Shown here piece after piece: positions 15,901-42,573 of a DNA stretch of 64,000 nt. The position numbers and the translations under genes are program-made. How positions within the stretch are numbered: position 1 is the first letter of the stretch; every line of letters begins with the position of its first letter. The notes under the pieces were generated by a model. That model was not told where the DNA came from. It ran no database searches and saw only the letters and a list, made by a program, of their open reading frames with translations. Source of the stretch: Escherichia coli (GTDB lineage Bacteria; Pseudomonadota; Gammaproteobacteria; Enterobacterales; Enterobacteriaceae); the NCBI RefSeq assembly GCF_030384885.1, contig NZ_CP128613.1, one strand, 5' to 3'.

Positions 15901-15925
15901 ATAGCTGTGCAGATGGATAACGACA

Positions 15926-21406: not shown

Positions 21407-21654
21407 ATATGCAATAATTAATTGCACTGCCCCGCCAGCTATAATCGCGGGGCTTCGTTTTTCAGGGATAACAAAACCCGAAACTTCTTCCATCTGCCAG
21501 CAACAATGCCTCTTCCTCTATAGTGTTCTCCGGATCTACAGCATCCTGAAGTAGCGCGATGTACTCACTGGCTATCTGCATCAGAAAGTTAAAAACAATG
21601 TTTTTAACCTATAAAAATGGCGCTGTATTTGCGCCATTTTTATCATTCAATGCA

Positions 21655-22269: not shown

Positions 22270-22475
22270 ATTTACCCTGTTTGTTTCATTATGTTGTACA
22301 CCTCTTCAGGAGTATTCATAAAACAAGATAAATGTAAAGAACTGTATTGTTTTGTATAATGCAATGGTGACTAATCGCCAATTAATATAAGCACCATCAT
22401 TTCTCCATATTTTTATGTTAGAAGTGACAAGGAGAAATGTAATGTTTCTCTCAGAGAATATAAATCATTCCTTTT

Positions 22476-22500
22476 GCCCACCTTAATGGTGGGCTTTTTT
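22476..22500 (+). terminator. rho-independent terminator of a short transcript
   Basis: GCCCACC-TTAA-TGGTGGGC hairpin followed by TTTTTT; extended -10 TGTATAAT at 22353-22360 about 120 nt upstream. Confidence 0.5.
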
Positions 22501-22730
22501 ATGCAAAACCTGAACACCCTGTGGTATTCCCCTGGCATTATCACTTTCGCGATTAACCAACAGCCAGACCAGCAAACACGCCACTACAGGCACAGCAAAA
22601 TCCATCAGGCTTGCCACACCCCATGCGTGCGGCTCAAAGCCGCCCCGCCATGGCATATTAATCCGCTTACCATTTTCGAACAGCTGATTGGTTTAGTCCG
22701 GTGTTTCCCTGCTTGCACTTAAAAATGAGC

Positions 22731-22820
22731 GGATGGGAAACTCTCGAAATGGTTCGTCGATATGCTCACCTTTCAGTCAGGCATTTCACCGCGCACGCGA
22801 GCAAAATCAAAGGCACATGA
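22731..22820 (+). pseudogene. 3' remnant of a second P4-type integrase gene
   Basis: Encodes ..[14 protein letters not shown].. then stop, matching the C-terminus ([14 protein letters not shown]) of the intact integrase at 34943-36106; lies directly beside the left att copy. Confidence 0.6.
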
Positions 22821-22851
22821 GGAGAATGTGGTTGACTTAAAAACGAGGAAA

Positions 22852-22913
22852 CTTATTGATTTAAATGGTGCCGATAATAGGAGTCGAACCTACGACCTTC
22901 GCATTACGAATTA
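22852..22913. repeat. left 62-bp direct repeat (att copy; duplicates 3' part of tRNA-Thr plus 16 bp)
   Basis: Identical to 36105-36166 by direct comparison. Confidence 0.8.
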
Positions 22914-23282
22914 TAAGAATCCGTTTCTAATTCAAAGCATTACCACATCAACACTGCGCTCACACGTCCCACCACATCAAAACATGTAAAGCCTTGCAAG
23001 CCATTGTGAGGCCTTATGTGTCTCAGTTTTGTCCCACCTTGTATTACGACTTGCATAACCAATGAAGATAAACGTGACGACAAACGACGCAGCAGTCTTC
23101 TTTTCTTTCACACTTTCCCCACTCAGCATGCATACCTTCTACTATAACTGTAGTGAATGTCTGTTATGAGCGAGGAGCGGACTATCTTTCTGTGCTAAGC
23201 ACAGAAGTTTAAATTAATAAATAGAGATTAAGATGTTTATTGGTTACATTGATATTTATAATTTGATTGCCTTGAAATTCCT

Positions 23283-23322
23283 AAGCCGAATTCATGACGT
23301 CTTCATCACATGAATTCGGCTT
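23283..23322 (-). terminator. hairpin downstream of the 447-aa cargo gene (possible terminator)
   Basis: Perfect 14-bp stem AAGCCGAATTCATG/CATGAATTCGGCTT, 12-nt loop, about 30 nt past the stop codon; no clean U-run. Confidence 0.35.
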
Positions 23323-23351
23323 ATGCATAATACTAAGTTGGTTTTATTAAG

Positions 23352-24695
23352 TCATTTCTTTGCCGCGCTTTTATTGCACTTCTTACAGCCTTCAATCAAT
23401 TTTTCAGTTATTATATAATAATAAGGAATGTAAATGTTTAACCCGCAAGTTTTAATCGAATCGAAAGCAAGAACTTTCACAATGGATTCTTCTCCATCTT
23501 TCTCCATTAGCAATATATCACTTAAAGGCAAATCATTAGGATTGTAAATCCTCACATCGCCAGGCTGTCTTTCATAGGCTTCGATGTCATCACCTGGTTG
23601 GCCATAGGCTAAATGAGTGGCTTTAATCCAGTTTATTGGTTCAGCATTTTGACACCAGGAGATTATTTTTTCTAATTTTTCAGGTGTGTAAGCTTTTACA
23701 TAATCTCCATGTTTTTCACATCTACCTAGTTCTGAAAAATGGCCCAGGGTGTATTCATAAGAATAATCACCAGCAGTCAATGGTAGTCTAAAGTATTGCT
23801 GAGGCAATGCCTTCTGGACTTTGGTTTTACTCAGCAAATTAAAGGTGATATCATAAAGTTGATATAGACAAACACCCTCTCGATCTGGATATCCATAAGG
23901 CTTGATGTCAGAAAGCATCTCAATATCAGAATTATAAACACTTGCATAATCATCACTTCCAAACATGAAAAAACCTTTTGATAGAATGAATATTGCATTA
24001 GGAAGAACGTTTTTTTCAAAATTCTGCGAGTGAGTTTTTATTTCTTGTACTATGTCCATCCAATCCATATCAGTATCATAGGCGAAGATAATTCCAAAAC
24101 CATTAGTCTGAATTCTCTCCTCTGAATGTATAAATATGTTCTGATTTATACCATGTTTCTTTAGTTTTTTGAATGAGCGGATATTTTCGAAAGCACTTTT
24201 CAGTTCTTTTTTTGTTAGTTTTGACTTAACCTGAATCACACCATAGCAGTACTCCACAGGTAAAACCTCAAAAATTTCCTGTCGCTGCATAAGCGAAAAT
24301 GAATTAAAAGCATCATAAAAAAGAATGTCGATTTCATTACTGAGATGTCCTGAGGTTGACGCTACACGGACACTTGATTTTGAGATGGCATAGCTTTGCG
24401 GTAAGAGTTTATTTTCATTGAAAAAGCATCTTAAGAGTTCCTCTCTGACAGTACCAACATCTCTTGGATGCTTAATATCTTTCGATATTTCAAAATCTTG
24501 AAGCATTTTCCTCTGTAAGTGAATGAACTCCCTTTCAAGACCATAAAATTCTTTATCTTTAGATCTCAGTTTGCTTGCACGAGAAACTTGATCGGATATC
24601 CATTCCTTTGTGCGAGACTCTCTCTCAGCAAAATCATCACGTTGTTTTTTTACAGCACCGGTCAAGCGTTTTCTTGTGTTTTCATTATCGGACAT
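23352..24695 (-). CDS. hypothetical protein, low GC; possible PD-(D/E)xK / Mrr-like nuclease fold
   Basis: 447-aa ORF; motif ..SNEIDILFYD..(about 25 aa)..YGVIQVKSKL reminiscent of a D...(E/Q)xK nuclease core; AT-rich relative to neighbours; no confident family assignment. Confidence 0.55.
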   Translation of the reverse strand: MSDNENTRKRLTGAVKKQRDDFAERESRTKEWISDQVSRASKLRSKDKEFYGLEREFIHLQRKMLQDFEISKDIKHPRDVGTVREELLRCFFNENKLLPQSYAISKSSVRVASTSGHLSNEIDILFYDAFNSFSLMQRQEIFEVLPVEYCYGVIQVKSKLTKKELKSAFENIRSFKKLKKHGINQNIFIHSEERIQTNGFGIIFAYDTDMDWMDIVQEIKTHSQNFEKNVLPNAIFILSKGFFMFGSDDYASVYNSDIEMLSDIKPYGYPDREGVCLYQLYDITFNLLSKTKVQKALPQQYFRLPLTAGDYSYEYTLGHFSELGRCEKHGDYVKAYTPEKLEKIISWCQNAEPINWIKATHLAYGQPGDDIEAYERQPGDVRIYNPNDLPLSDILLMEKDGEESIVKVLAFDSIKTCGLNIYIPYYYIITEKLIEGCKKCNKSAAKK

Positions 24696-25214
24696 AAATT
24701 AACCTTAAGTTGATAAGTTTTGTGGTGAATTTATAAAGCCTGAGGGATAAACATTTATAGTCTATAAGTTACTATTTATTTGAGATAGTAAGCCAATTTT
24801 ATTAGATGAAGAAACGTTCATAACCTCCTCAACTACGTTTCAATCGGCAACATCGGAGAAGTACACTTTGACAATATATAGCATATTGAAGCAGCTGTAA
24901 CTTAGAGCGCGTACACTCAAGATTTCCCGCTGCGGTGATGGCGGACGACTGCGTTTGATAACTCATTTCCCTCACCAACTATCGGACCTGTTCCTGATTG
25001 ATTATCACATTATAATGTGAGCAATGTCCGCTCCTAGCACATAGCAGTTCTAGAGACAATGGCGTAAAGTCATGGAGAATCGGTGGGAGGATATTCAGTT
25101 TCATTCATGCCGAAATACGGTAAAATCTATAACAGATAGAAATCATTCAATATTCGCACTATCAGAAGCTGGCCAGCCAACCGCGCACGATTTTGCATAC
25201 GACATGCTACGGTT

Positions 25215-25814
25215 TCATTTATCTCCGACCGGAAACTTCTTATACAGTGTCGATACACCAACATCATAGATGATCTCCACCTTCTGGCGAGGAACGCCTG
25301 ATGCAATTAATCGCCCGGCCTGCGCCCTTTGTTCTGGTGTAAGTTTGGGACGACGTCCACCAATTCGTCCCTGTGCGCGAGCAACTTCCAGTCCAGCTTT
25401 TGTTCGTTCAACAATCAGTTCTCGTTCCATTTCAGCCAGGGCACCCATCACATGAAAGAAAAAACGCCCCATCGGTGTGCTGGTATCAATAGCATCCGTC
25501 AGGCTGCGAAAATTAACGCCACGTTCGCGCAACTCCTCAACCAGAATGACCAGATGGACAAGCGTGCCGGGACCGGGTTTATTCAGCGCTTCAATCAGGC
25601 GATCGCGCTGGTCAAAGCAGTCATCTCCCACCACATAAGCTGTGATGGACGGGCGGAAAGTGACTTTTCCCAGATCTTCGGTATAGGGCTTGTCGCGGTT
25701 CGGGTATTCATGTGTTTCCACACGGCGACCGGTTCCCGCACTTTCTTCTTCAACCTTAAACGGCACACCTCGAAATGACGCATCCTGAAGCCTGTCTTTC
25801 CACGTCATATACAC
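25215..25814 (-). pseudogene. chimeric ORF: C-terminal half of a Pin/Gin/Hin-family serine DNA invertase fused to a Mu-N-like (DNA circularisation protein) N-terminus
   Basis: C-terminal about 110 aa (VEELRERG..FRSLTD.IDTSTPMGRFFFHVMGALAEMERELIVERT..GGRRPKLT..) matches invertase C-terminus and HTH; catalytic Ser-containing N-terminus missing; first about 85 aa (WKDRLQDASFRGVPF..GRRVETHEYPNRD..EDLG) resembles phage DNA_circ_N proteins. Confidence 0.6.
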
Positions 25815-25869
25815 TCCGAAAATAAAAAAGCCACCTATTAGAAGGTGGCCTTGTAATGAATTTTATTAA

Positions 25870-26400
25870 TTAGCGAGTCAGAAACAACGAATCTTTATAC
25901 TTTTGCTGTTGTTCATTTAAATACTTAGCTGTTTCATCGCTGGCAAATGGAAATATTACCGTATTTTTAGGCATGGTAATTTCTTTTTTGTCCAGCGTCA
26001 GAGTAAACATAGGAACATACTGAGCAGAGTAACGCACCGCAGAAACGAGCTCTAGTTTAGACTCTTCAATAACACTTAAATTATCCAGGCTAACTTTCTC
26101 TTCATCTTTTTTCTTTGACGCATTTAAAGTTTTTATTACTTTATTTAATTTCTCCTGAAAATCCTCCTTAAAGTTTTCAGGATTGCCGTCGACAACAAGA
26201 ATCTGTTCACCCTGATTATCTGGAAAAATAATCTTTGCACTTATCAATTTATTTTCTTTATAAACATCACCAAGTTTTATGGCTCCTCCAGATAACTGAA
26301 TAATATGTTCATCTTTAAAGGAGATGTTGCCAGAGATTATGAGAGATGAAAAAATAGCCGCTGCTCCAAGAATTACACTTGCTGTGATATAGCCTTTCAT
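25870..26400 (-). CDS. hypothetical membrane-anchored/secreted protein, low GC
   Basis: 176-aa ORF with N-terminal hydrophobic segment MKGYITASVILGAAAIFSSLIISG; Lys/Glu-rich; AT-rich. Confidence 0.5.
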   Translation of the reverse strand: MKGYITASVILGAAAIFSSLIISGNISFKDEHIIQLSGGAIKLGDVYKENKLISAKIIFPDNQGEQILVVDGNPENFKEDFQEKLNKVIKTLNASKKKDEEKVSLDNLSVIEESKLELVSAVRYSAQYVPMFTLTLDKKEITMPKNTVIFPFASDETAKYLNEQQQKYKDSLFLTR

Positions 26401-26491
26401 TTTTCGCCTATTAACATTTTTCTAAATGTGCATTAATTCTATCACTCTATTTATGACTTACAACCAGCAATACATGTGAGGGGAATCCTGG

Positions 26492-27623
26492 CTACCAAAA
26501 TCGGGTATAGCCAACATCGTGATTTATATCAATGCCACTGGAGCGTGTTTCCGTAACCCGCATACCTGGTGGCATATTTATAAATGATACCTTGATCTCA
26601 CCATCAACTTTTGGCGCGGTAGCTTTATTAATCATGAAGGGATTCGGGCCTGTGGCATCGGAGGCGTTGTTTGCCTGAGCCGGATCCACCGCCGGATAAG
26701 GAGTGTATCCCCGTGCCGGTATTCCCGTCTTCGATATTGTTGAAGGTGGCGCGATCGGTGTTCTGCACCATGTGCAACGGCACCCGGAACAGACGACAGA
26801 TTTCTTCAAGCTGAAACTTGCGGGTTTCCAGGAACTGGCTGTCCTCGGCGTTCAGCGCCATCGACTTCCAGTCCAGCCCCATCTCAAGGATCATCGGGCG
26901 GTGAGCATTACCAAGCCCGGTGTGACGCTCCTCAAAATCTTTCTTCAGGCGCTCATAAGCCTGATCCGACAGCGTCTGTTCTGTACGCAACACACCCGAC
27001 GTCACCGCGCCATTGCTGAACAGTCTGGCCCCGTGCTCTTCGGTCGCAGCTGCCAGCGATATTGCCTCACGGGCATAGGCGATGGGATTCAGTCCCACCA
27101 GACCGTCCAGCGTCAGCGTGCGCACATGCCAGATATCCTCCTGGCTCAGTACATCCGTGGAGCCATCCGGGAATGTGACCTGATAGACCGGCTCCCAGCT
27201 ACTGTTAAGCTTCGGTACCACACAGCCGGGATCGACGGGCAGCAGTTCAGCCACTTCGCCAAATGCTTTCACTTTGTAGGCGTAAAAGTTTCCCCGCAGG
27301 CACAGACAGGTGACCACCAGCTCCCAGAACTCCTGCGGCGTCATATAGCCATTGGGATGCGTGGAGATCAGCTTATGCAGACGTTCGCCAGTGGCTCTCT
27401 GCTTCAGGCTGCCGTTCAGGTGATACAGGTTGCAGGGCAACATCCCGACCGACTCCGCCAGCACCCTGACACAGGAAAAAACCGCCGTCAGTCGCATGGC
27501 CCGCTGGCTGCTGATCTGCTTTCCGGTATAGGTGTCGTAGGACAACCCGATGGCATCCGCCAGCTCTGCTGGCGTGGTCACCGGTGCGTCACTTTTTCGT
27601 TGAAATAATCCCGAAAAGAACAC
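26492..27623 (-). pseudogene. phage portal protein (HK97-family), frameshifted and 3'-truncated
   Basis: 331-aa ORF with portal-like N-terminus continues in another frame as a 105-aa ORF (26492-26809); normally followed by protease/capsid genes, which are absent. Confidence 0.6.
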
Positions 27624-27805
27624 TATTTACCTCCGCCGACAGACAGCTGTGTACGATCGAGATATCGCGCCACCAGCCACGACCAGAACAGGCACAGCGC
27701 CCCGGCAACAACAAAACCCGCCGGGGGATAAATCAGCCAGGCACCATATGCCAGCAAAAGCGCACCCAGCACGCCCACCAGAGGCGCGAGAATCAGCATG
27801 ATCAT
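27623..27805 (-). CDS. small hydrophobic phage protein
   Basis: 60-aa ORF, two hydrophobic stretches, between terminase and portal. Confidence 0.3.
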
Positions 27806-27816
27806 AATTACCTCAG

Positions 27817-29550
27817 TTAAAGCGAGCGGATCCCGTAGGACTCAATGTGGTCAGACAGCGTGTCTTCTTTCTCGTACAGCATGGCTCTGCCAACCGCCAT
27901 AATCAGCGCAACTGCACCATCGATTTTGTTTTCCGCCTGCTCTTTGACGGGTTTCACCACATCATCGTTACCCGGAATGGTTTTGCCGACCACGTTGCCG
28001 ATACACCAGGTCATGATGGGATTGCCGTCATGATGAAAGCGCCCCGATTCAATTGCCGCTTCCAGCTCTTTCATCGGGTCGGACATGTTGGTGTAGTTCT
28101 GAATGATAGTGATGGGGTTCAGGTCTTCATCAGCAAGGTCATGTGACAACCCGGTCGCCCCGAAGGGGTCGATGGGTGACTCACTGACCGGGCTGATTTT
28201 GTTCGCCGCTTTGGCCTCCTCGAGGATGTAGCGATAATCCACCTCCGCACCATCGGTAACGGTCAGAACGCCCATTTCCACCCATTTCTGAAAGCGTTCG
28301 GCTGTCCGTCGATCTTCATTTTTCTCGACGCTGTACACCGTGTCATACGGTACCCAGAAACGCGGGGCCACACTGTAGTAATGCGTTTTACCGTCAATCT
28401 CGCGGGTATAAAGTCGCGCCATGCTGTTCATATCCAGCTTACGCGCCAGGTCAAAGGCCAGAATGCACGGCTGCCCCTCGAACTGCTCAAGAGTCAGTGA
28501 TTTATCCTCGCATCTCTGCCAGCTCACCAGGTTGAAATACGCCGAACGCGCCGACACCCAGATATTGAGGTGTTTTGTTTTAAAGACGTTTGCCAGACGG
28601 GCGTTATTTTTCGCACGTTGCTGCTGGCTTAACAAAAACTCGCGATAAACCGACACACCGATATTCGGGTTAGCTTTTTCAAGTACCTGCGGGTCGGTCC
28701 AGTCGTCGCCTTCGTCAACGGTATAGATGATCCCGAACAGTTCATCGTTGGGCACCGAGCCGTTGAGCATCTCGATGACTTCCCGCCGTTTGTCGTAGCA
28801 CGGCCCCTCAATGTTGTACCCGGCGGTGGTAATGGCCCACATCAGTGGCTGGCGTCGCGCCCCCATCCCGGTAAGCATCGTGGTGTAAAGCGCATCTGTG
28901 GCGTGCTCGTGATATTCATCCACCACCGCACAGTGGGGTGATGAACCATCACCGGGGTTACCGATCAGCGGTTCAAACCGCGCACCATCCTCCGGACGGT
29001 TCATGTTTGAGGCGTTAACCTCAATCCCGAACGCTTCCGTCAGCATGGGTGTGCGTTTACACATCAGTCGTGCCGGACGAAAGACTTCCCATGCCTGTTT
29101 CTCCGTCGTGGCACCGGAATACACTTCCGCGCCGAACTCGTTATCACAGGCAAAACAATACAGGGCGACACCGGCAGAGATTGCCGATTTGCCGTTCTTA
29201 CGGGGGATTTCGGTATACACCTCACGGAAGCGGCGCAGCCGGGAGCCTTTATTGACCCAGCCAAACGCGCAGCAGATCACAAAGAGCTGCCACGGCTCCA
29301 GCGTGATGGGCATCCTCTTAAATGCCCACTCACCCTTGGTGTGCGGCAACAGCTGAATAAATTTCGCGGCCCGTTCAGCCAGGTCCTTGTCGAAGCGGTA
29401 ACGAAACGACTTACTTTTTTCCTCCATCAGGTCATCAAGATGGCGCTGGCAGGCCTGAATCACAAACTGGCAGGCCACAATCTTTCCGTGCACGACATCA
29501 CGGGCATACTGATTGGCAGCATTTACGTTGGGGTAAGATTTCCGGCTCAT
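27817..29550 (-). CDS. phage terminase large subunit
   Basis: 577-aa ORF with ATPase Walker-like region and C-terminal nuclease region; overlaps small-subunit stop (ATGA). Confidence 0.9.
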
Positions 29551-30050
29551 GATTCGATGATTTTCAGAAACGGGTTAGTGGCTTTCTTCTGCCCCGCCAG
29601 GCCAATCAGACGCTGGCGGCTGCTGGGGTCGAGTCCGAGCATTGCCCCCGTACTGCTCATCTCGGACTCCTGTTCTTTTTTGGCGGTCAGCTCCGGATTT
29701 TTGACCATACCGCCCATTGCACCGGTGATGGTGTTGCCCTGTCTGGCAATATTTTTCACGGCACGTCGCCAGAACTCGTAGGCCACGCACCACCGCTCAA
29801 GCACCGCGAGGTCAGTCACGCACAGCAGGCCCTGACCGCAGAGTTCTTTAGTTGTCAGTTGCCACATGATCGTGGCGAGAGGGAGATCTTCTTCAGCGAA
29901 CCACTCCGGTGGCTCAACACCTTTGATGGGCGTAAAAACAGGTTCATCTTTATTCAGGGCTCGCTTGCCGGGGTTTCCGGCCAGCGCCTTGCGCGCCGTT
30001 GGCTTGGGGCGACGCCCGGAACGCCCCGCCGTTCCAGCCATATGCGGCAC
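29547..30050 (-). CDS. phage terminase small subunit (P27-like)
   Basis: 167-aa ORF, basic N-terminus [22 protein letters not shown], immediately upstream of large subunit. Confidence 0.8.
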
Positions 30051-30166
30051 TCCTGGTTAAATTTCATTTTTCGCGGGTATAAAAAAACGATGGGGCGGGC
30101 AGTCCGGAAGACGTCAGGTCACAGGGATTTGACCCGCCCCTCCCCTCTGGCAGTGGGAACTGGTTC

Positions 30167-30517
30167 TTACTTCAGCCGTTCACGGGCCGTCTTCGCCTTA
30201 TGACACGGCCAGCACAAACTCTGCAGATTACTGTCGACATCAGTGCCGCCATGCGATTTAGGGATGATGTGGTCAACGGTCTTCGCCTCACGCACCACAC
30301 CAGCACGCAGACATAACTGACACAGGCCTTTGTCACGCTTCAGGACACGCGCGCGGATACTGTCCCACTTCGAACCGTAGCCGCGCTGATGACGGGATTG
30401 TCCAGGTTTGTATTGCTTCCAGCCTTCGCTTTTGTGGCTTTCGCAGTAGCCTGAAGGGTCCGTGGTTGTAAAGCGGCAGCCGCGAACACGGCAGGCTTTT
30501 GGGGTTCGTGGGGGCAT
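30167..30517 (-). CDS. HNH endonuclease (phage packaging-associated)
   Basis: 116-aa ORF with CxxC...HIIPKSHGG..D..NLQSLCWPCH HNH motif. Confidence 0.85.
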   Translation of the reverse strand: MPPRTPKACRVRGCRFTTTDPSGYCESHKSEGWKQYKPGQSRHQRGYGSKWDSIRARVLKRDKGLCQLCLRAGVVREAKTVDHIIPKSHGGTDVDSNLQSLCWPCHKAKTARERLK

Positions 30518-31041
30518 ATGTACTCCAATGAAGAAACCAGCGAAATAGCTGCCTTCATTCGTAGTAAACCTTTTTCATCAACGCAGTAATGGATTCTTTG
30601 AAGAGTCGCGATCAATACAACTCACTAATGGAGAGACTTGTCTCACGCATGAGACAAATTTCCCGTTTGATTTAATGGACACTATAGAGGGACAGAATGC
30701 CTTCCTCACTCGAATCACATCAATTAAGGAGGTTCAACATGTTTCATTCCACAAGTCATCAGGCTGTAATTATGGCAGCATCAGTTTGTGCCAAAGACCT
30801 TTTCCGCTTCACTTTGAGCCTGATTCATTTCTACCTGACCGGCTCGCCTCTATCTTTTTAATCCCCGCTTTATCCAAATTGCATTGCCATAATGCCGACA
30901 ACACACTGACATTCAAATCCAGACTACCTCCAATAGTCTGACCGTACACCTATATAGTTTTAATTTTCATCAATCCATTTAACTATCGTTTAATTGTTGT
31001 CACATAGGATTCTGCCGTTTTTAACAATGCAGGATAATAAG

Positions 31042-31335
31042 ATGAAAAAAATGTTGTTTTCTGCCGCTCTGGCAATGCTTATTACAGGATGTGCTCAACA
31101 GACGTTTACTGTTGGAAACAAACCGACAGCAGTAACACCAAAAGAAACCATCACCCATCATTTCTTCGTTTCGGGAATTGGACAGGAGAAAACTGTTGAT
31201 GCAGCCAAAATTTGTGGCGGCGCAGAAAATGTTGTTAAAACAGAAACCCAGCAAACATTCGTAAATGGATTGCTCGGTTTTATTACTTTAGGCATTTATA
31301 CTCCGCTGGAAGCGCGTGTGTATTGCTCACAATAA
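31042..31335 (+). CDS. bor: Bor/Iss-family outer-membrane lipoprotein
   Basis: 97 aa from internal Met; lipobox LITGC; closely matches recollection of lambda Bor. Confidence 0.9.
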   Translation: MKKMLFSAALAMLITGCAQQTFTVGNKPTAVTPKETITHHFFVSGIGQEKTVDAAKICGGAENVVKTETQQTFVNGLLGFITLGIYTPLEARVYCSQ

Positions 31336-31366
31336 TTGCATGAGTTGCCCATCGATATGGGCAGCT

Positions 31367-31828
31367 CTATCTGCACTGCTCATTAATATACTTCTGGGTT
31401 CCTTCCAGTTGTTTTTGCATCGTGATCAGCCTCTCTCTGAGGGTGAAATAATCCCGTTCAGCGGTGTCTGCCAGTCGGGGGGAGGCTGCATTATCCACGC
31501 CGGAGGCGGTGGTGGCTTCACGCACTGACTGACAGACTGCTTTGATGTGCAACCGACGACGACCAGCGGCAACATCATCACGCAGAGCATCATTTTCAGC
31601 TTTCGCATCAGCTAACTCCTTCGTGTATTTTGCATCGAGCGCAGCAACATCACGCTGACGCATCTGCATGTCAGTAATTGCCACGTTCGCCAGCTTCAGT
31701 TCTCTGGCATTTTTGTCGCGCTGGGCTTTGTATGTAATGGCGTTATCACGGTAATGATTAACCGCCCATGACAGACAGACGATGATGCAGATAACCAGAG
31801 CGGAGATAATCGCGGTTAATCTGTTCAT
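31367..31828 (-). CDS. Rz: i-spanin Rz
   Basis: 153-aa ORF, N-terminal TM, coiled-coil; closely matches recollection of lambda Rz. Confidence 0.9.
31426..31608 (-). CDS. Rz1: o-spanin Rz1 (embedded in +1 frame of Rz)
   Basis: 60-aa ORF with lipobox VVGC and proline-rich PPPPP segment, fully inside Rz. Confidence 0.8.
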
Positions 31829-32301
31829 ACCTCAATCTCTCTGACCGTTCCGCCCGCTTCTTTGAATTTTGCAATCAGGCTGTCAGCCTTATGCTCGAAC
31901 TGACCATAACCAGCGCCCGGCAGTGAAGCCCAGATATTGCTGCAACGGTCGATAGCCTGACGAATATCACCGCGATCAATCATCGGTAAAGCGCCACGCT
32001 CTTTAATCTGCTGCAATGCCACTGCGTCCTGGCTTTTGGGGGAGAAGTCTTTCAGGCCAAGCTGCTTACGATAGGAATCCCACCAACGGGAAAGAAGCTG
32101 GTAGCGCCCGGCTGCTGTTGATTTGAGTTTTGGGTTTAGCGTGACAAGTTTGCGAGGGTGATCGGAGTAATCAGTAAATAGCTCTCCGCCTACAATGACG
32201 TCATAACCATGATTTCTGGTTTTCTGCCGTCCGTTATCCGTTCCTTCTGACCATGCCACCATATCGAGGAAAGCTTTACGCTGAGGATTAAGATTTTGCA
32301 T
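31825..32301 (-). CDS. R: endolysin, lambda R-type lytic transglycosylase
   Basis: 158-aa ORF closely matching recollection of lambda R (..[31 protein letters not shown]..). Confidence 0.9.
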
Positions 32302-32605
32302 TTTTCACCCCTGTCAGTCGTTCCCAGAAGTACGTCAGTGCAACCGAACCCATCGCACCACTAATCCCCGCTGTCGCGAGAATCATGTAAATACTGAATC
32401 CACTTTCGATGCTGATCAGGCCACCAATAACACCGGTGAATCCTGATACCACTATCTGAGCCAGAGCATTTATCCAACTCCACGTTGCTTTACTCTGCTT
32501 CACATCTATCAGGTAGCGGACTAGACCGCCCCAACCTGCGATGATCAGCAAAACGAGCCAGAACGCTCCGGCAAGGCTCTCTTTTTCGTGCATATGAATA
32601 GCCAA
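32288..32605 (-). CDS. putative holin
   Basis: 105-aa ORF with hydrophobic helices, overlapping start of endolysin; not lambda S-like. Confidence 0.55.
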   Translation of the reverse strand: MAIHMHEKESLAGAFWLVLLIIAGWGGLVRYLIDVKQSKATWSWINALAQIVVSGFTGVIGGLISIESGFSIYMILATAGISGAMGSVALTYFWERLTGVKNAKS

Positions 32606-32711
32606 TGTTTCGCCGCCGACAAAAGGCCGGGACGTTAAATGTCAGAAATCAGGCTCACGGGGTAATTTAACGACAAAGCACGGAGTTGATGCTCCCCGCA
32701 AGCCTGGAATA

Positions 32712-32734
32712 AAAAAGCCAGCATGTAGCTGGCA
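32712..32734 (-). terminator. intrinsic terminator of short late-promoter transcript (tR'-like)
   Basis: On minus strand GCCAGCTACATGCTGGC hairpin followed by TTTTTT, between Q and the holin. Confidence 0.5.
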
Positions 32735-32914
32735 ACAGAGGGTTAAGCAATATCAACTCAACAGCTGAAGACACCCTGGCTGGGGTACATTGGAAGGATA
32801 CTCACCGCCCAGAAACAGAAAAGCCCAAGGCTTTAAACCTCGAGCTTGAATTTGGATTACTGCCAGTGCGTACAACATTGGCAAAATATCAGATTTATAT
32901 GAAATATATGCTTT

Positions 32915-33604
32915 TTAATCCAGTTTTGCAATATTTTGCTGTGAAAATGTCGCCTTTTGTTTTGAACGTGTTCTCGTTAGAAGCAATAAAGCTTCGCTAT
33001 CAAGCTGTAGAAAAATGTGCTTCATTGCAACCCAGCGTTCAGTGAATGTCTCAGACCAGTTTTTTGATGTCACTCCCACCAGTGACGCCAGTTCCTGGTA
33101 TTCATAAGCCTCACGCCCTGCCAGTTCGCTCTTCACATCCTGTGCCGCCAGCCAGATCAACTTCTTCAGGCGTTCCAGTGTCTTACCTGCAATTTTTCTG
33201 GTACCCAACAGAGTCTTAAACTCGCTCCATGCCCACTGCGTTATGGCAACCTGATGCTCCCAGCGAATATTTTCACTGTAACTCCACAGCAACCATGCTT
33301 TCTGATGCTCATCGAGAGACAGAACAGCGCGGCGCCATGAAGAGGTTGAAAACTCGACCGGACTGATCAGGGCGACAGATGAACCTTTTGCGTACGACTG
33401 TTTACCGGAAATCGGCAGATTATCCAGCATAATAATCTTGCCAGTTACCTCATCCAGAATGCGTCGCTTCTTTCGTTTGTATGTACCAGTATCAAATTGT
33501 GCATGCTCCAGCCAGGCTTCAAGCTGGCCTTTCGTTGCTCCGCTCAAGTCAGCGGTAGCCACCATGAGTTGCTCGCGGACATATTGTAAATATTGGGTAT
33601 TCAT
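32915..33604 (-). CDS. late-gene antiterminator Q-like protein
   Basis: 229-aa ORF directly upstream of the lysis cassette and downstream of rusA; position-based, not lambda-Q-like in sequence. Confidence 0.55.
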   Translation of the reverse strand: MNTQYLQYVREQLMVATADLSGATKGQLEAWLEHAQFDTGTYKRKKRRILDEVTGKIIMLDNLPISGKQSYAKGSSVALISPVEFSTSSWRRAVLSLDEHQKAWLLWSYSENIRWEHQVAITQWAWSEFKTLLGTRKIAGKTLERLKKLIWLAAQDVKSELAGREAYEYQELASLVGVTSKNWSETFTERWVAMKHIFLQLDSEALLLLTRTRSKQKATFSQQNIAKLD

Positions 33605-33737
33605 GCGGCAGCTCCTTTCAGTGTTTTGGCGTAATTCCTCAGTATTCGGTAATCGGTCAAAACAGAACCGGGGAAACGATATAAGCGCAGATGCCCCCAG
33701 CGGTGGCGAAGAAGTTCTGCCATATAAAACTCAAACA

Positions 33738-34100
33738 TCATTCATTCCCCATTTCGGTGATGGTCAGTTCCAGCCTCCCACCTTTGGTAACAGGCATCTT
33801 CACAACACGGTAATCAACGACCTGAGCATCATCCAGCCAGAAACCTGCTTTAGTGAGTGCGTCAAAAGCGGCTTTTTGCAGATTATCCAGGTCACGGCGA
33901 CGGCGATCCGGCATGTGGCACTCAATGCGGATTTTCACAGGCATAGCCAGGCCGATATCCAGCATTGCGTTTTTAATGATTCGGGCGACGTTATCGCGGT
34001 ATGCCTGCCCCTCTGCGCTGACGTGCGTGCGCCCGCGATTATGGCGGTAATAGCGATTATTGCTCGGAGGCCAGGGTAATGTGATGCTGTAGGTATTCAC
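33738..34100 (-). CDS. rusA: Holliday junction resolvase RusA
   Basis: 120-aa ORF matching recollection of RusA (..[31 protein letters not shown]..). Confidence 0.85.
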
Positions 34101-34387
34101 GCCTTAATAACCCCCTCTTTCAGCCAGATAACCTGTGTTCTCGCCATACCTTCCAGCGCGCATTCTTTTGCATATGCAGCATCGACAAAATGTGTGCGGC
34201 GGTCGATTTCGTCGTGGCAGGCAGAACATGCAATGGTGGCAATCAGGTCTGGCGGTTTGGTACCGGTGCCGCACAATCCAGTCAGCCGGATATGTGCCAG
34301 TACAGACGTTTCAGGGTTGCCATTACATACGCCAGGGATTCTTACCTGGCATTCCCGACTACGCGCTGCTTTTCTCAAATCAGCCAT
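34097..34387 (-). CDS. phage protein, Cys-rich (DUF1364/YbcO-like)
   Basis: 96 aa from [10 protein letters not shown]; four Cys; nin-region position. Confidence 0.5.
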
Positions 34388-34550
34388 GATTCCTCCTTGC
34401 TGCCAGTCGCAACCATTTTTTATCAACCAGGCTGGCGGTATATCCGAGCAGTGTTGGTATTTCGGAAGGCTTCAGCTCCGGTTTACGCTTACGACGATTT
34501 GGTACTCTGTAGATGTGTCCGTTCATGACACGAATAAGCGGTGTAGCCAT
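34380..34550 (-). CDS. NinE-like small protein (56 aa)
   Basis: [56 protein letters not shown]; stop overlaps next start; not in ORF track. Confidence 0.45.
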   Translation of the reverse strand: MATPLIRVMNGHIYRVPNRRKRKPELKPSEIPTLLGYTASLVDKKWLRLAARRNHG

Positions 34551-34831
34551 TACGCCTCCTGTTTGTCGCGGAGCTGCTGGAACTCGCAGCTCTGCGGAAT
34601 AGTCAGGTGGCAGCCAATATTCATCGCCCAGGCTTCAACCTTACACAGGAAGACATACATCTCTCCGGTATCAAGATCGGAGGTATGGCGTAACGACTGG
34701 ATAGTGGTGATATCACCGGTTACGACATCAACCAGGTCTTTGGTTTCATAACCGAGATATGTGTGTTTGAGAGCATCTTTTACCCAAGCTGGAGTGGCGA
34801 ACGTTTTACAGGCAACACGCAAAGACCCCAC
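34550..34831 (-). CDS. phage nin-region protein, possibly 5'-truncated
   Basis: 93-aa ORF abutting the integrase upstream region. Confidence 0.35.
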   Translation of the reverse strand: MGSLRVACKTFATPAWVKDALKHTYLGYETKDLVDVVTGDITTIQSLRHTSDLDTGEMYVFLCKVEAWAMNIGCHLTIPQSCEFQQLRDKQEA

Positions 34832-34942
34832 TAAACCAAAATCTCCTTACCTCACAACGCGACAAGCCTGCATTGCGGCGCTTCAGTCTCCGCTGCATAC
34901 TATCAAGGTGAGCGCGGGTGATGGCATAACAGAGGAAAGAAA

Positions 34943-36106
34943 ATGTCACTCTTCCGCAGAAGTGAAATATGGTACGCCAGTTTCACATTGCCGAACGGTA
35001 AAAGATTTAAACAGTCTCTTGGAACAAAGGACAAAAGGCAGGCGACAGAGCTCCATGACAAGCTAAAGGCTGAAGCATGGCGGGTCAGCAAACTTGGTGA
35101 AATACCTGATATGACGTTTGAGGAAGCGTGTGTCAGGTGGCTCGAAGAGAAAGCACATAAGAAATCACTGGACGATGACAAAAGCCGGATCGGATTCTGG
35201 CTTCAACATTTCGCAGGGATGCAACTAAGAGACATCACTGAATCAAAAATTTATTCAGCGATGCAGAAAATGACAAACCGGCGTCATGAGGAAAACTGGA
35301 AACTCAGGGCAGAAGCATGCAGAAAAAAAGGGAAACCTGTTCCAGAATACACGCCAAAACCAGCGTCCGTTGCAACGAAGGCTACGCATCTTTCATTTAT
35401 AAAGGCCCTGCTAAGAGCCGCAGAGCGTGAATGGAAAATGCTGGATAAGGCACCAATTATTAAAGTGCCTCAACCGAAGAATAAACGTATCCGCTGGCTG
35501 GAGCCTCATGAAGCACAAAGGCTGATTGATGAATGTCCGGAGCCATTAAAGTCTGTTGTTGAATTTGCACTGGCAACAGGCTTAAGACGCTCGAACATCA
35601 TCAACCTTGAATGGCAACAAATAGACATGCAGCGCCGGGTGGCATGGATAAACCCGGAAGAGAGTAAATCAAACCGCGCAATTGGCGTTGCGCTGAATGA
35701 TACTGCATGTCGCGTATTGAAAAAACAAATCGGGAATCATCACCGTTGGGTATTTGTATACAAGGAAAGCTGTACCAAACCAGACGGAACGAAAGCGCCA
35801 ACGGTCAGGAAGATGCGGTATGACGCAAACACAGCCTGGAAAGCGGCGCTGAGACGAGCAGGTATTGATGATTTCAGATTTCACGACTTGAGACACACCT
35901 GGGCAAGTTGGCTGGTTCAAGCCGGAGTCCCGTTGTCAGTGTTACAGGAAATGGGAGGCTGGGAGTCTATCGAAATGGTTCGTCGATATGCTCACCTCGC
36001 ACCTAATCACCTTACCGAACATGCACGGCAAATAGACTCGATCCTGAACCCATCGGTCCCAAATTTGTCCCAGTCAAAAAATAAGGAAGGTACTAATGAT
36101 GTGTAA
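34943..36106 (+). CDS. int: tyrosine integrase (P4/DLP12 IntD-like)
   Basis: 387-aa ORF with HDLRHT...YAHL catalytic tail, ending 15 bp before the tRNA 3' end. Confidence 0.9.
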
Positions 36107-36166
36107 CTTATTGATTTAAATGGTGCCGATAATAGGAGTCGAACCTACGACCTTCGCATTACGAAT
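36105..36166. repeat. right 62-bp direct repeat (att copy overlapping tRNA-Thr 3' end)
   Basis: Identical to 22852-22913. Confidence 0.8.
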
Positions 36167-36196
36167 GCGCTGCTCTACCAACTGAGCTATATCGGC
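36121..36196 (-). tRNA. thrW: tRNA-Thr (anticodon CGU)
   Basis: Reverse complement reads GCCGATATAGCTCAGTTGGTAGAGCAGCGCATTCGTAATGCGAAGGTCGTAGGTTCGACTCCTATTATCGGCACCA; cloverleaf-compatible, CCA end. Confidence 0.9.
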
Positions 36197-36310
36197 CCTG
36201 AAAGGACATGTTCACGAGCGTGAATCACGGTGGACAAGGTTAAAACTAACCGGGCGATGCGTCAATGGCCTTGTGAATCAAATGGCTACTTTTGCATCAC
36301 CCGGTTTTAT

Positions 36311-37564
36311 TTACGCACGAATGGTGTAATCACCAATGCCGATCCACTTGTAAGTGGTCAGTGCTTCCAGCCCCATTGGGCCACGCGCGTGGAGTTTTTG
36401 TGTGCTTACCGCCACTTCCGCACCCAGACCAAACTGGCCGCCGTCGGTAAAACGCGTAGAGGCGTTAACGTAAACAGCGGACGAATCCACTTCGTTAACA
36501 AAACGCTGGGCATTACGCATATCGCGGGTCAGGATCGCATCGGAGTGTTGCGTACCGTGTTCACGAATATGGGCGATGGCATCGTCAAGATCGCTGACGA
36601 TTTTGACGTTCAAGTCTAATGACAGGAACTCATCGTCATACTCTTCGGCTTTAACAGCCACCACCTTCGCGGGGCCTGCCTGCAACTGCGCCAGCGCAGT
36701 TGCGTCAGCGTGTAATGTCACGCAGCTTTCCGCCATTTGCTTGCTTAATGCGGGCAGGAAGCTATCTGCGATGTTTTTATTTACCAGCAACGTTTCTACC
36801 GTATTACACGTGCTCGGGCGCTGAGTTTTCGCGTTGACAATCACTTTCAATGCTTCAGCGATCTCTGCACTTTCATCAACGTAAATATGGCATACGCCTA
36901 TACCACCTGTGATTACCGGAATCGTCGACTGTTCGCGGCACAGTTTATGCAACCCAGCCCCGCCGCGTGGGATCAGCATGTCGATGTATTTATCCATACG
37001 CAGCAGTTCACTGACCAGCGCACGGTCAGGATTATCAATCGCCTGCACGGCACCCGCCGGTAAACCGCAGGATTTCAGGGCGTCCTGAATCACCGCCACC
37101 GTTGCAGCGTTAGTGCGACAGGTTTCTTTGCCGCCGCGCAGGATCACCGCGTTACCGGTTTTCAGGCACAGTGAAGCAACATCAACCGTCACGTTCGGGC
37201 GCGCTTCATAAATTACACCAATCACCCCCAGCGGTACGCGACGGCGTTCCAGACGCAGGCCGCTGTCCAGCACCCCGCCATCAATTACCTGCCCCACTGG
37301 ATCGGCGAGGTTACATACCTGGCGCACATCATCGGCAATGCTTTTCAGCCGTGCGGGCGTCAGTGCCAGGCGGTCAAGCATCGCTTCGCTAAGGCCATTG
37401 GCACGCGCGTCAGCAACATCCTGGGCATTAGCATTGAGGATGCTTTCGCTTTGTGCTTCCAGTTCATCGGCGATTTTTTCCAGCACGCGATTTTTTTCGC
37501 GACTGGAGAGTTGCGCTAAATTATACGAGGCTTGCTTCGCGGCAATGCCCATTTGTTCCAGCAT
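36311..37564 (-). CDS. proA: gamma-glutamyl phosphate reductase
   Basis: 417-aa ORF, recognised ProA sequence. Confidence 0.95.
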
Positions 37565-37574
37565 CGGCTGCTCC

Positions 37575-38678
37575 TTAACGGGTAATCATATCATCACGGT
37601 GAACGGCAACCGGGCCGTATTCATATCCCAGTATTGCATCAATTTCTTGCGAGTGATGTCCGGCAATACGGCGTAATGCATCGCTGTTGTAACGACTGAC
37701 GCCGTGGGCGATATCGCGACCTTCAAGGTTGCAAATGCGAATGACTTCACCACGCGAGAAGTTGCCGGTTACGCTTTTAATGCCTTTCGGCAACAGGGAG
37801 CTGCCGCGTTCAAGAATGGCGGCGGTTGCCCCTTCATCTACCGTGATTTCACCCGCAGGCGGCGCACCGAAAATCCAACGTTTGCGGTTTTCAAGCGGAG
37901 TCGCCTGGGCATGGAACAGCGTACCGACGGAAATACCTTCCATCACATCACCAATGACACCCGGCTTACTGCCCGCGGCAATAATGGTGTCGATACCCGC
38001 ACGGCAAGCCACGTCAGCGGCCTGCAATTTAGTGCTCATGCCGCCGGTTCCAAGACCTGAAACGCTATCACCGGCAATCGCGCGCAGTGCGTCATCAATG
38101 CCGTACACATCTTTAATCAGTTCTGCCTGCGGATTGCTACGCGGGTCAGCGGTATACAAACCTTTTTGATCGGTCAGCAACAACAGTTTATCGGCACCTG
38201 CCAGAATCGCCGCCAGTGCCGAAAGGTTATCGTTATCGCCGACTTTAATCTCTGCAGTAGCGACAGCATCGTTCTCATTGATTACCGGAACGATGTTGTT
38301 ATCGAGCAGTGCACGCAAGGTGTCGCGGGCGTTCAGGAAGCGTTCACGGTCCTCCATATCAGCACGAGTTAGCAGCATCTGCCCGACGTGAATACCATAA
38401 ATCGAAAACAGCTGTTCCCACAGTTGAATCAGTCGACTCTGCCCTACCGCCGCCAGAAGTTGTTTCGAGGCGATAGTCGCTGGCAGTTCCGGGTAACCCA
38501 GGTGCTCACGTCCGGCGGCAATCGCACCCGACGTCACAATTACAATCCGATGCCCGGCGGCATGTAGCTGCGCACACTGGCGAACAAGTTCAACGATATG
38601 GGCACGGTTCAGGCGGCGCGATCCGCCTGTTAGCACACTGGTGCCGAGTTTTACCACCAGCGTCTGGCTGTCACTCAT
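37575..38678 (-). CDS. proB: glutamate 5-kinase
   Basis: 367 aa from [16 protein letters not shown]; ORF-track start lies upstream. Confidence 0.95.
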
Positions 38679-38965
38679 GATTCTCTGCCATTCAATTTTA
38701 GGGAAAATGATATCAAACGAACGTTTTAGCAGGACTGTCGCCGGTTGCCAACCATCTGCAAGCAAAGCATGGCGTTTTGTTGCGCGGGATCAGCAAGCGT
38801 AGCGGCAGTTGTTTACGCTTTTATTACAGATTTAATAAATTACCACATTTTAAGAATATCATTAATCTGTAATATATCTTTAACAATCTCAGGTTAAAAA
38901 CTTTCCTGTTTTCAACGGGGCTCTCCCGCTGAATATTCGCGCGTTAATTAAAATCAGGAATGAAA

Positions 38966-40021: not shown

Positions 40022-40029
40022 TGGAGATT

Positions 40030-40056
40030 GCCGGATGCGGCGCATCCGGCACTTTT
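40030..40056 (+). terminator. phoE terminator
   Basis: GCCGGATGC-GGC-GCATCCGGC hairpin then ACTTTTC. Confidence 0.5.
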
Positions 40057-40059
40057 CAC

Positions 40060-40518
<459 letters not shown>

Positions 40519-41763: not shown

Positions 41764-41854
41764 GGATGCAGCCTCCAGAATACTTACTGGAAACTATTGT
41801 AACCTGCCTGAAGTTAAAAAGAACAACGCCCGGCAGTGCCAGGCGTTGAAAAGA

Positions 41855-42313: not shown

Positions 42314-42573
42314 GTGAAGTGTCCCAGCCTGTTTATCTACGGCTTAAAAAGTGTTCGAGGGGAAAATAGGTTGCGCGAGATTATAGAGATCTGACGCACT
42401 AAAAACCAGTATTTCACATGAGTCCGCGTCTTTTTACGCACAGCCTCTCCCTGACGCGGGATAAAGTGGTATTCTCAAACATATCTCGCAAGCCTGTCTT
42501 GTGTTGACAACATTTTCTGCTAACCCTGTGACCTGCAATACTGTTTTGCGGGTGATCGACAAGGAGACTTAAC

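Follow-up and report, generated by a model that had tools for sequence, protein, structure and literature searches.

Evidence for a probably immobilised SfII/e14-type prophage remnant at the tRNA gene thrW of Escherichia coli

What occupies the roughly 13.3 kb between two direct repeats beside the threonine tRNA gene thrW of this Escherichia coli strain, and how did it acquire its present form? The gene thrW is a textbook integration hotspot, and a first-pass annotation of the window, i.e. the whole stretch of 64 kb analyzed here, had called the block a degraded mosaic prophage bounded by att-derived repeats. This view is upheld by an empty site in the near-clonal strain E. coli 2013C-4282. 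In our assessment, the block is very probably the locked-in remnant of a temperate phage of about 38 kb from the SfII/SfV/SfI/e14 group that was integrated at thrW and reduced by three microhomology deletions.

The boundaries of the element are defined by the tRNA gene, two repeat copies, a phage arm and an older integrase scar:

36121..36196, minus strand: thrW, tRNA-Thr(CGU), intact (ARAGORN, Rfam)
36105..36166: attL, the right copy of the 62-bp repeat, with the core at 36121-36166, i.e. the 3' 46 nt of thrW
22850..22911: attR, the left copy, with the core at 22866-22911 and a 16-bp arm (22850-22865) shared with the older scar
22912..23182: phage P arm adjoining attR; in free SfII, SfI, SfIV and SfV, its first ~125 bp form one uninterrupted stretch with int and core
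22682..22849, plus strand: older thrW-type integrase scar (~35 codons of the 3' end, readable in frame 1 and with the catalytic-Tyr motif RRYAH, plus 3' spacer), outside the element and directly left of the left repeat

thrW is the single tRNA gene called by ARAGORN in the window, and Rfam adds only the IS009 sRNA, which lies outside the element. A repeat search of the window returned an exact 62-nt direct repeat (22850-22911 and 36105-36166) that combines 46 nt of the tRNA 3' end (36121-36166) with 16 nt downstream (36105-36120), the very composition first described. Its exact identity and the position of the right copy hold as well, whereas the left copy, previously placed at 22852-22913, was off by 2 bp. 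The published 46-nt att core occurs at exactly two sites in the window (22866-22911 and 36121-36166), both with 0 mismatches, where shuffled sequences predict 0.00. Joining the two prophage ends yields a virtual attP of 791 nt that is found contiguously, at 97.6-98.9% identity, in SfII, SfI, SfIV and SfV, spanning their annotated attP. As had been noticed early on, the integrase abuts the tRNA gene: its reading frame on the plus strand stops 14 nt from the tRNA 3' end.

That the repeat is longer than the published core is accounted for by the scar. Its segment 22723-22807 shares 73% identity with the 3' end of the resident int (35949-36033), and the scar matches the int-attP region of SfX, HK542 and mEp213 at 74%. 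In 2013C-4282, where PGAP annotates it as a partial integrase, the same scar directly adjoins a complete thrW. Judging from these alignments, only 46 of the 62 repeated bases constitute the recombination core, the other 16 being a phage arm common with the older integrase scar. What lay downstream of thrW before the insertion would have been the residue of a related but older integrase whose 16-bp spacer was the same, and the phage would have entered via Int-mediated recombination between attP and the 46-bp core at the thrW 3' end. The arm is repeated at both ends because the phage inserted beside this scar, and end-to-end identity extends to 62 bp because the scar had the same spacer. Experiments have shown that a thrW phage can integrate at the attL of a thrW phage already in residence (PMC3306764). 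The layered att site shows that the hotspot has been reused.

Over 35.6 kb, namely positions 1-22911 and 36105-48761, the window differs from 2013C-4282 by 2 mismatches and 1 gap. In that strain, the same flanks enclose the 62 bp in single copy with nothing between; hence, the window carries a 13,255-bp insertion, and the proposed strain-specific occupancy of thrW is borne out. The int-thrW junction seen in the window is present in 958 of 5,426 complete E. coli genomes (about 18%). The polymorphism could reflect either a recent gain with fast decay in the present strain or a precise loss in 2013C-4282. If the gain was recent, three deletions in succession are not entirely easy to reconcile with flanks that are nearly identical.

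The gene inventory, to which searches against Pfam and PHROGs contributed, is as follows:

23352..24695, minus strand: DUF6602 cargo gene, GC ~35%, 447 aa; NucC-like nuclease fold of the PD-(D/E)xK type plus a Cys/His domain at the C terminus
25215..25814, minus strand: in-frame DNA-circularisation/PinE fusion ORF (Pfam DNA_circ_N, Resolvase positions 79-144 and HTH_7; joint mapping)
25870..26400, minus strand: low-GC moron of 176 aa, function unassigned (phrog_5485), between the tape-measure and DNA-circularisation genes
26493..26729, minus strand: tape-measure remnant, C-terminal 79 codons kept, ending at joint D2
26728..27623, minus strand: portal gene, cut after residue 299 (Pfam Phage_portal positions 2-251 of 321); the ORF continues to 26628 in foreign sequence
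27623..27805, minus strand: ymfR-like small membrane protein (PHROGs)
27817..29550, minus strand: terminase large subunit (TerL), 577 aa, full length (Pfam)
29547..30050, minus strand: terminase small subunit (TerS, P27 family), full length (Pfam)
30092..30101, minus strand: probable cos overhang TGCCCGCCCC, between the HNH and TerS genes, exactly the SfI cos 10-mer (PMC3636060)
30167..30517, minus strand: terminase-associated HNH endonuclease (Pfam)
31027..31335, plus strand: Bor/Iss serum-resistance lipoprotein gene (Pfam Lambda_Bor), 100% identical to an MB15 gene annotated iss
31367..32605, minus strand: lysis cassette, all full length (holin 32288-32605, GH24 endolysin 31825-32301, Rz 31367-31828, embedded Rz1 31426-31608)
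32915..33604, minus strand: antiterminator Q, full length, with terminator-like hairpins downstream (32847-32821 and 32733-32717)
33601..34807, minus strand: nin block (ylcG 33601-33741, rusA 33738-34100, ybcO 34097-34387, ninE 34380-34550, truncated ybcN/ninB 34550-34807)
34807..35066, plus strand: xis, truncated; at the 5' end it lacks 30 of 116 codons, which made up the helix-turn-helix part, and with them a start codon of its own
34943..36106, plus strand: P22/SfII-type tyrosine integrase, intact, 387 aa (Pfam Phage_integrase), identical to SfII Int at 387 of 387 residues

The two databases confirm NinE, YbcO, RusA, Q, holin, endolysin, Rz, Bor, HNH, TerS, TerL and a truncated portal, so that the nin-region genes, rusA, Q, the intact lysis cassette, bor, the HNH-TerS-TerL block and the broken portal listed in the first-pass annotation all stand. 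The absences stated there hold likewise: no repressor, replication, capsid or tail-tube/sheath genes were found in the element. Overlooked at that stage were the truncated xis, the tape-measure, DNA-circularisation and pinE fragments, two low-GC cargo genes, the cos site and the older integrase remnant outside the left repeat. A 10-mer match is weak by itself, but the position of the probable cos site is as expected. The fusion ORF, a product of the deletion D1 described below, comprises ~87 N-terminal aa of the DNA-circularisation protein (baseplate hub) followed in frame by the C-terminal half of PinE, an invertase, with its HTH; the catalytic-Ser region of PinE is not included. NCBIfam gave no name for the DUF6602 protein, the 176-aa ORF or a 57-aa ORF, and PADLOC returned no match for the 176-aa ORF or the fusion ORF. 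The approximately 15 retained genes are all full length and free of frameshifts, with protein identities of 93-100% to intact relatives.

Phages of the SfII/SfV/SfI/e14 group have a P22-type integrase and a lambdoid early region; their heads are of the HK97 type and their contractile tails of the Mu type. The integrase, the att core and the contiguous attP of the element are those of the SfII/SfV/SfI-type lambdoid myoviruses that target thrW. The cos packaging and Mu-type tail module is likewise represented: TerS, TerL and the N-terminal part of the portal match SfII at about 97% on the nucleotide level, and the tape-measure and DNA_circ fragments stand in the expected order, the remainder of the module being deleted. 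With ~25.3 kb gone and Xis truncated, a complete inducible genome is not present; the element is a remnant of this family rather than a functional member.

All segments are colinear and in order with the intact thrW prophages of MB15 and EH10-18-47 at 94-99% nucleotide identity. Compared with the intact 38.5-kb prophage of EH10-18-47, three gaps of 7,153, 8,237 and 9,936 bp are found at the joints D1 (25553-25556, microhomology GATG), D2 (26728-26729, TC) and D3 (34807-34809, TAC), respectively. Every joint coincides with truncated genes, namely portal, tape measure, DNA_circ, pinE, ybcN and xis. The truncated portal is 99.7% identical to an intact portal across its 299 aa, and only the C-terminal ~85 codons of ybcN/ninB are left, ending at D3. 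The sizes balance (38.5 kb minus 25.3 kb gives 13.2 kb), and the entire present structure is accounted for by three deletions (7.2, 8.2 and 9.9 kb) that each show a microhomology of 2-4 bp. D1 accounts for the loss of the baseplate, the invertible tail-fibre segment and the 5' half of pinE. With D2 went head and tail, the 3' part of the portal gene and most of the tape-measure gene, whereas D3 removed the whole early region from ybcN through the first 30 codons of xis. Left in place are attL, attR and Int, all of them intact, a complete late block (nin, Q, lysis, bor/iss), HNH-cos-TerS-TerL and the two low-GC cargo genes. Internal deletion is the expected fate of prophages.

The insertion, its origin from a phage, the logic of the att sites and the three deletions are shown by these comparisons, whereas effects on mobility, expression and the host are inferred from them. 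Self-excision is unlikely because there is no functional Xis, the first 30 residues being gone, and no cII- or pL-driven int expression; excision PCR is hence predicted to be negative unless Xis is supplied. The lysis genes are presumably silent because pR-driven Q expression has been lost. Probably, the only genes that matter to the host are autonomously expressed morons, i.e. Bor/Iss (serum resistance) and the DUF6602 putative nuclease, a candidate for phage defence. A scan for promoter-like sequences found 14 sites versus 17.8 expected from shuffles, i.e. fewer than in shuffled sequence, and is therefore no guide to expression.

The slot between attR and pinE in which the DUF6602 gene lies is filled by gtrABC in SfII, by mcrA in e14 and by a gene for a DUF262 protein in MB15. 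The DUF6602 family is widespread (at least 330 homologues) and uncharacterised. A tblastn search with DUF6602 against 50,697 phage records gave no match, and the family is therefore known only from prophages and islands. The predicted protein has the fold of NucC, an effector of CBASS and type III CRISPR systems. In contrast to NucC, it carries an extra C-terminal domain of ~160 aa with invariant Cys/His, the usual E-x-K motif is an invariant Q-x-K, and no cyclase or CRISPR partner gene lies adjacent: neither a CD-NTase nor a Cas10 cyclase was found near the gene, whose neighbours are attR and the truncated pinE, or in four other contexts. The 'Damona' DUF6602 defence cassette is comparable by the shared domain alone. 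Conceivably, though this is a tentative reading, DUF6602 is a cyclase-independent NucC-fold nuclease in which the Cys/His C-terminal domain replaces cyclic-nucleotide sensing, and which was preserved by selection as a single-gene anti-phage defence during prophage decay. DUF6602 would then be the selected part because it is retained in two independent remnants, the second being an IS3-truncated remnant of ~5 kb in MB06171 that keeps DUF6602, xis and int, with 100% nucleotide identity in the DUF6602 block.

The remnant as a whole may have been domesticated, with DUF6602 (defence), Bor/Iss (serum resistance) and possibly the Q-lysis cassette kept by selection. Domestication would explain why the retained genes are all full length, and the MB06171 remnant as well as the presence of McrA and the DUF262 protein in the same slot of e14 and MB15 speak in its favor. 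However, recent deletions, which the near-clonal strain with the empty site suggests, would leave intact reading frames just as well, and DUF6602 and int sit at opposite prophage ends, so that internal deletions spare both by geometry alone. We consider domestication rather doubtful.

Could the three joints instead be assembly artefacts, i.e. collapsed or mis-joined contigs of an intact prophage of ~38 kb? None of them was found in any of the 5,426 complete genomes, in which the best matches break exactly at the joints, and the evidence comes from one assembled sequence. Mis-assemblies, however, occur at long repeats and not at microhomologies of 2-4 bp within unique genes, segment order and orientation are preserved throughout, and e14 of K-12 has decayed in the same style, with a chimeric ymfN as well as portal and baseplate fragments. 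An artefact is accordingly very improbable. It should be added that any genome sharing a deletion joint would have ranked above the matches that break there.

Still less credence is given to a phage satellite of the PICI or cf-PICI-like type that retains int, cos, TerS/TerL and HNH for hijacking helper particles. A size of 13.3 kb together with int, cos, HNH, TerS and TerL superficially resembles cos-type satellites, yet no replication, primase, AlpA or capsid-redirection genes were detected with Pfam and PHROGs, all segments follow the order of full-length prophages colinearly, a gene is interrupted at each boundary by a short-microhomology joint, xis is truncated, and the architecture occurs in no other genome, whereas satellites form conserved families. 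On gene content and colinearity, the PICI/cf-PICI identity was rejected. Finally, ancestral chromosomal sequence, named from the outset as a case that would overturn the prophage reading, here in the form of a CP4-6-like island as suggested by the presence of CP4-6 at the same tRNA gene in K-12 (correctly stated in the first-pass annotation), is refuted for practical purposes by the clean empty site of the near-clonal strain, and the block has no CP4-6 content, its match to K-12 being limited to the att half-site region.

Taken together, the 13.3-kb prophage remnant at thrW is unremarkable, a presumably immobilised vestige of a phage family well known from E. coli and Shigella, and its only mildly unusual feature is an uncharacterised nuclease-fold gene where relatives carry surface-antigen or restriction genes. 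The question as posed is of little consequence, given a known hotspot, common SfII/e14-type prophages and expected decay. Nevertheless, the locus provides a clean worked example, with a base-exact empty site, three microhomology joints and a layered att site, and the cargo slot, with its NucC fold and C-terminal domain but no signalling partner, is the one place that may repay experiments.

Among known elements, CP4-6 of K-12 shares the tRNA target, the att half-site and the same ~35-bp older scar beyond its distal end. It is nonetheless unrelated, being a 34-kb element that has no genes in common with the present one and carries its IntF (466 aa) at the far end; only the att region aligns with K-12 (259-305 kb), and neither a P4-type IntF nor CP4-6 genes are part of the element. 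The likeness to DLP12/lambda modules noted at first sight holds for about 3.5 of the 13.3 kb, that is, the nin block of ybcN, ninE, ybcO, rusA and ylcG (33600-34809, 97.9% to DLP12) and bor-Rz (93%), whereas the packaging genes are of the e14/SfV type (97.5% to e14) and int and attP of the SfII type. DLP12 itself resides at argU with a related integrase (intD; 72% nucleotide identity), a different Q, holin and endolysin, and no HNH/TerS/TerL of the same type; membership was rejected. The Shigella flexneri serotype-converting myoviruses SfII, SfI, SfIV and SfV share the identical 46-bp att core, attP arms at 97.6-98.9%, the cos 10-mer and the int-attP-cargo layout (PMC3636060). They differ in having gtrABC or oac in place of the DUF6602 gene (the element showed no homologue of gtr or oac and is thus no serotype-converting phage), and the element resides in E. 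coli and, with ~25 kb deleted, is not a viable phage. The prophage e14 of K-12 sits in icd by means of a different integrase, intE, keeps its repressor region, can excise and carries mcrA and lit as cargo. Yet, it is of the same phage type and decay style, with terminase and portal fragments, ymfR and pinE, 97.5% identity over the segment 27216-28953, and, in the interval from pinE to the att end, mcrA as a defence gene of the nuclease type, precisely the slot that DUF6602 holds here.

An integrase gene ends 14 nt from thrW, the only tRNA gene of the window, in line with the first-pass annotation of an integrase abutting the tRNA.

36121-36196, minus strand: tRNA-Thr(CGU), thrW
34943-36106, plus strand: integrase ORF, 387 aa

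A repeat search of the window returned an exact 62-nt direct repeat at 22850-22911 (attR) and 36105-36166 (attL), whose right copy combines the 3'-terminal 46 nt of the tRNA with the 16 nt beyond it. The repeat, this composition and the right-hand coordinates had been annotated correctly at first pass, while the left copy had been placed 2 bp off (22852-22913). The flanks represent the K-12 region in inverted orientation with 95-96% identity, ecpD-ecpE-ykgJ-yagU lying to the left of the element and thrW-proA-proB-phoE to its right. An Rfam IS009 sRNA match (141.5 bits; 21500-21649, minus strand) adjoins yagU and is cut by the edge of the searched region. The proposed whole-genome comparison revealed an empty site in the near-clonal E. 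coli 2013C-4282 (NZ_CP027579.1), which shows 2 mismatches to window 1-22911, none and one gap to 36105-48761, and a single copy of the 62-bp sequence that is present twice in the window. Hence, the difference at thrW amounts to exactly 13,255 bp, with the repeat at its borders, and the absence of this block from 2013C-4282 excludes that it is ancestral core sequence. The int-thrW junction recurs in 958 of 5,426 complete E. coli genomes, and occupancy of thrW by SfII-type phages is thus common. The alignment with 2013C-4282 ends at 48761. From 48762 to 64000, the window harbors a Flag-2 (lateral flagella) gene cluster whose best matches among complete E. coli genomes reach only ~93% identity; 2013C-4282 has just lafU and an flhA fragment at this position. 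Besides thrW, this cluster marks a further recent structural divergence of the two strains.

Between the repeats, Pfam and PHROGs identified a truncated portal, YmfR, TerL, TerS and an HNH endonuclease on the packaging side, followed by the lysis and late genes (Bor, Rz, a GH24 endolysin, a LydA-type holin and Q), the nin side (RusA, YbcO, NinE and a truncated NinB/YbcN) and, next to thrW, a truncated excisionase and the integrase. Two small genes add to this inventory.

31426-31608: Rz1, embedded in Rz
33601-33741: ylcG

In the phage collection, the best matches were the thrW-integrating Shigella phages SfII, SfIV and SfI, followed by Salmonella ST64B. The SfII integrase is identical to that of the element at all 387 residues. 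Moreover, the 46-nt att core described for SfI, SfII, SfV, SfX and P22 (PMC3636060) occurs exactly twice in the window (22866-22911 and 36121-36166; 0.00 expected), and a virtual attP, in which window 35501-36166 is fused to 22912-23500, runs uninterrupted over 791 nt in SfII, SfI, SfIV and SfV (97.6-98.9% identity), where it spans the annotated attP. Integrase, att core and virtual attP together tie the element to the thrW-integrating Sf phage group. A candidate cos site, the single exact copy of the SfI overhang TGCCCGCCCC at 30092-30101, is as a 10-mer match alone weak evidence; it lies between the HNH and TerS genes, the position expected for cos. The DLP12/lambda-like label of the first-pass annotation fits about a quarter of the element: the DLP12 nin block is 97.9% and bor-Rz 93% identical, with the DLP12 integrase being a 72% relative. 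In e14, the portal-TerL segment is 97.5% and pinE 88% identical, and the best single label is SfII/SfV/e14-type. CP4-6, correctly named at first pass as the K-12 occupant of thrW, is an unrelated element of 34 kb. With these refinements, the original reading as a degraded prophage at thrW is borne out, and the element adds one more case to a well-known kind.

How the prophage decayed can be read from intact-looking relatives, which occupy thrW in the same orientation in two complete E. coli genomes, MB15 and EH10-18-47, the latter with the same cargo genes as the window element. All window segments align to EH10-18-47 in order and with 94-99% identity, separated by three gaps.

Joint 25553-25556: deletion D1, 7,153 bp, with one end within pinE and the other at codon ~87 of the DNA-circularisation gene, removing the invertible tail-fibre segment and the baseplate genes in between
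Joint 26728-26729: deletion D2, 8,237 bp, comprising the tail and head genes together with most of the tape-measure gene and the part of the portal gene past codon 299
Joint 34807-34809: deletion D3, 9,936 bp, with one end within ybcN and the other at codon 30 of xis, removing the genes for replication, immunity and recombination

Microhomologies are present at all three joints (GATG at D1, TC at D2, TAC at D3), and subtracting 25.3 kb from the 38.5 kb between the att sites of EH10-18-47 yields the observed size of the element. D1 is in frame and generated a chimeric ORF, as seen from Pfam, PHROGs and joint mapping.

25215-25814, minus strand: D1 chimeric ORF, 199 aa

In it, the N-terminus of the baseplate hub (DNA_circ_N) is joined to the C-terminal PinE half with its HTH, and the invertase part bearing the catalytic serine is missing. 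Genes clear of the joints are full length, and their proteins are 93-100% identical to those of the intact relatives. None of the 5,426 complete genomes shares any of the three joints, since the best matches stop exactly there and a sharer would outrank them.

In its present state, the element retains attL, attR and Int, while Xis lacks its N-terminal 30 residues and start codon, and the early promoters and cII are deleted. Excision of lambda and P22 requires Xis. By analogy, the truncated Xis and the lost early promoters and cII predict that excision would depend on Xis provided by a related phage. Since Q has lost its transcription from pR, the lysis genes are probably silent. Some lambdoid phage genes have promoters of their own and are expressed in lysogens; the genes of this class in the element, bor/iss and the two low-GC morons, are probably the ones relevant to the host. 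The near-identical flanks indicate that the difference to 2013C-4282 at thrW is recent, and two explanations for it remain. Either an intact phage entered the window lineage and quickly lost three blocks, or the common ancestor was lysogenic and 2013C-4282 was cured by Int/Xis while the prophage was intact; in the latter case, the window lineage would have locked its prophage in by deletion.

The integration site itself has a longer history. Close to the left repeat, on its outer side, the stretch 22723-22807 resembles the 3' end of the resident int (73% identity) and translates into an integrase C-terminus; the int-attP region of SfX, HK542 and mEp213 shows ~74% identity to 22682-22865.

22682-22849: 3' end of an older integrase (scar)
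22483-22656, minus strand: 57-aa ORF adjoining the scar, matching PHROGs of unknown function

In 2013C-4282, where its annotation reads partial integrase, the scar directly follows a complete thrW. The phage thus entered a thrW already followed by the attL-side arm of an older, related element; for SfI, integration into the attL of an SfX prophage already in place is known from experiment (PMC3306764). This arm carried the same 16-nt spacer as the incoming phage, which extends the identity of the two ends 16 nt past the 46-nt core. K-12, MB15 and EH10-18-47 also have the last ~38 bp of the scar, on the far side of the distal att half-site, and the scar is hence old. Homology to K-12 breaks at 22429/22430, leaving a layered scar at 22430-22849. 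Furthermore, yagP-paoABCD is located beside the scar position in K-12, MB15, MB06171 and EH10-18-47 and is absent from the window lineage.

The interval between attR and pinE varies among relatives of the element.

MB15 (L003), 5788-7677: DUF262 protein
ECONIH1 (L016), 8853-10223: FRG-domain protein
LR-62-2 (L015), 8722-14330: BRO-N, ImmA and GIY-YIG genes
K-12 e14 (L019), 15347-16180, pinE to att end: mcrA
Window, 23352-24695, minus strand: DUF6602 protein, 447 aa (Pfam; GC ~35%)

Outside this interval, the window has a further low-GC ORF of 176 aa (25870-26400, minus strand), which is flanked by the tape-measure and DNA-circularisation genes and belongs to phrog_5485, a family of unknown function. 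This ORF has a hydrophobic N-terminus and is 99.9% conserved in many E. coli prophages. At its position, MB15 carries an OB-fold gene on the opposite strand, which makes this a second moron slot. MB06171 (L004, NZ_CM129888.1 3726228-3731456) harbors at thrW an independent, IS3-truncated remnant of ~5 kb from the same phage type (attR, DUF6602, IS3, DUF4222, xis, int, thrW) whose 2.2-kb DUF6602 block shows 100% identity to that of the window.

Of the whole element, only the DUF6602 cargo gene might merit further study. Its position at the prophage end would alone spare it from internal deletions. The protein matches the PADLOC PD_DExK and NucC models as well as the sequences of solved NucC structures (7zgv, E 7e-9), and combines the entire NucC fold with a C-terminal domain of ~160 aa. 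An alignment of 30 homologues (47-83% identity) shows invariant H76-P-R-D79, E121, D123, E148 and Q155-x-K157, together with C326, H329, C348, C437 and C440 in the C-terminal part. Homologues of ~450 aa number at least 330 across Proteobacteria, with none in 50,697 sequenced phage records. No cyclase gene was found near DUF6602 in the window, Serratia, E. coli-island or Pseudomonas-prophage contexts. In Pseudomonas asiatica (L013, 7001-11587), a homologue directly follows the tail genes at a prophage tail end, three genes from a DUF4365+Crr6 gene. Judged from sequence, a defence role for DUF6602 is plausible.

Compared with known systems, SfII carries gtrABC (gtrA-gtrB-gtrII) in the attR-pinE slot, between pinE and the att end, where the element has DUF6602. 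The E-V-K motif of NucC is replaced by Q-V-K (Q-x-K) in the DUF6602 family. Finally, a DUF6602 integron cassette, 'Damona', has been reported as anti-phage, and DUF4365+Crr6 as a further such system, 'Divona' (preprint 10.1101/2024.07.02.601686); 'Damona' and the window cargo gene have the DUF6602 domain in common.
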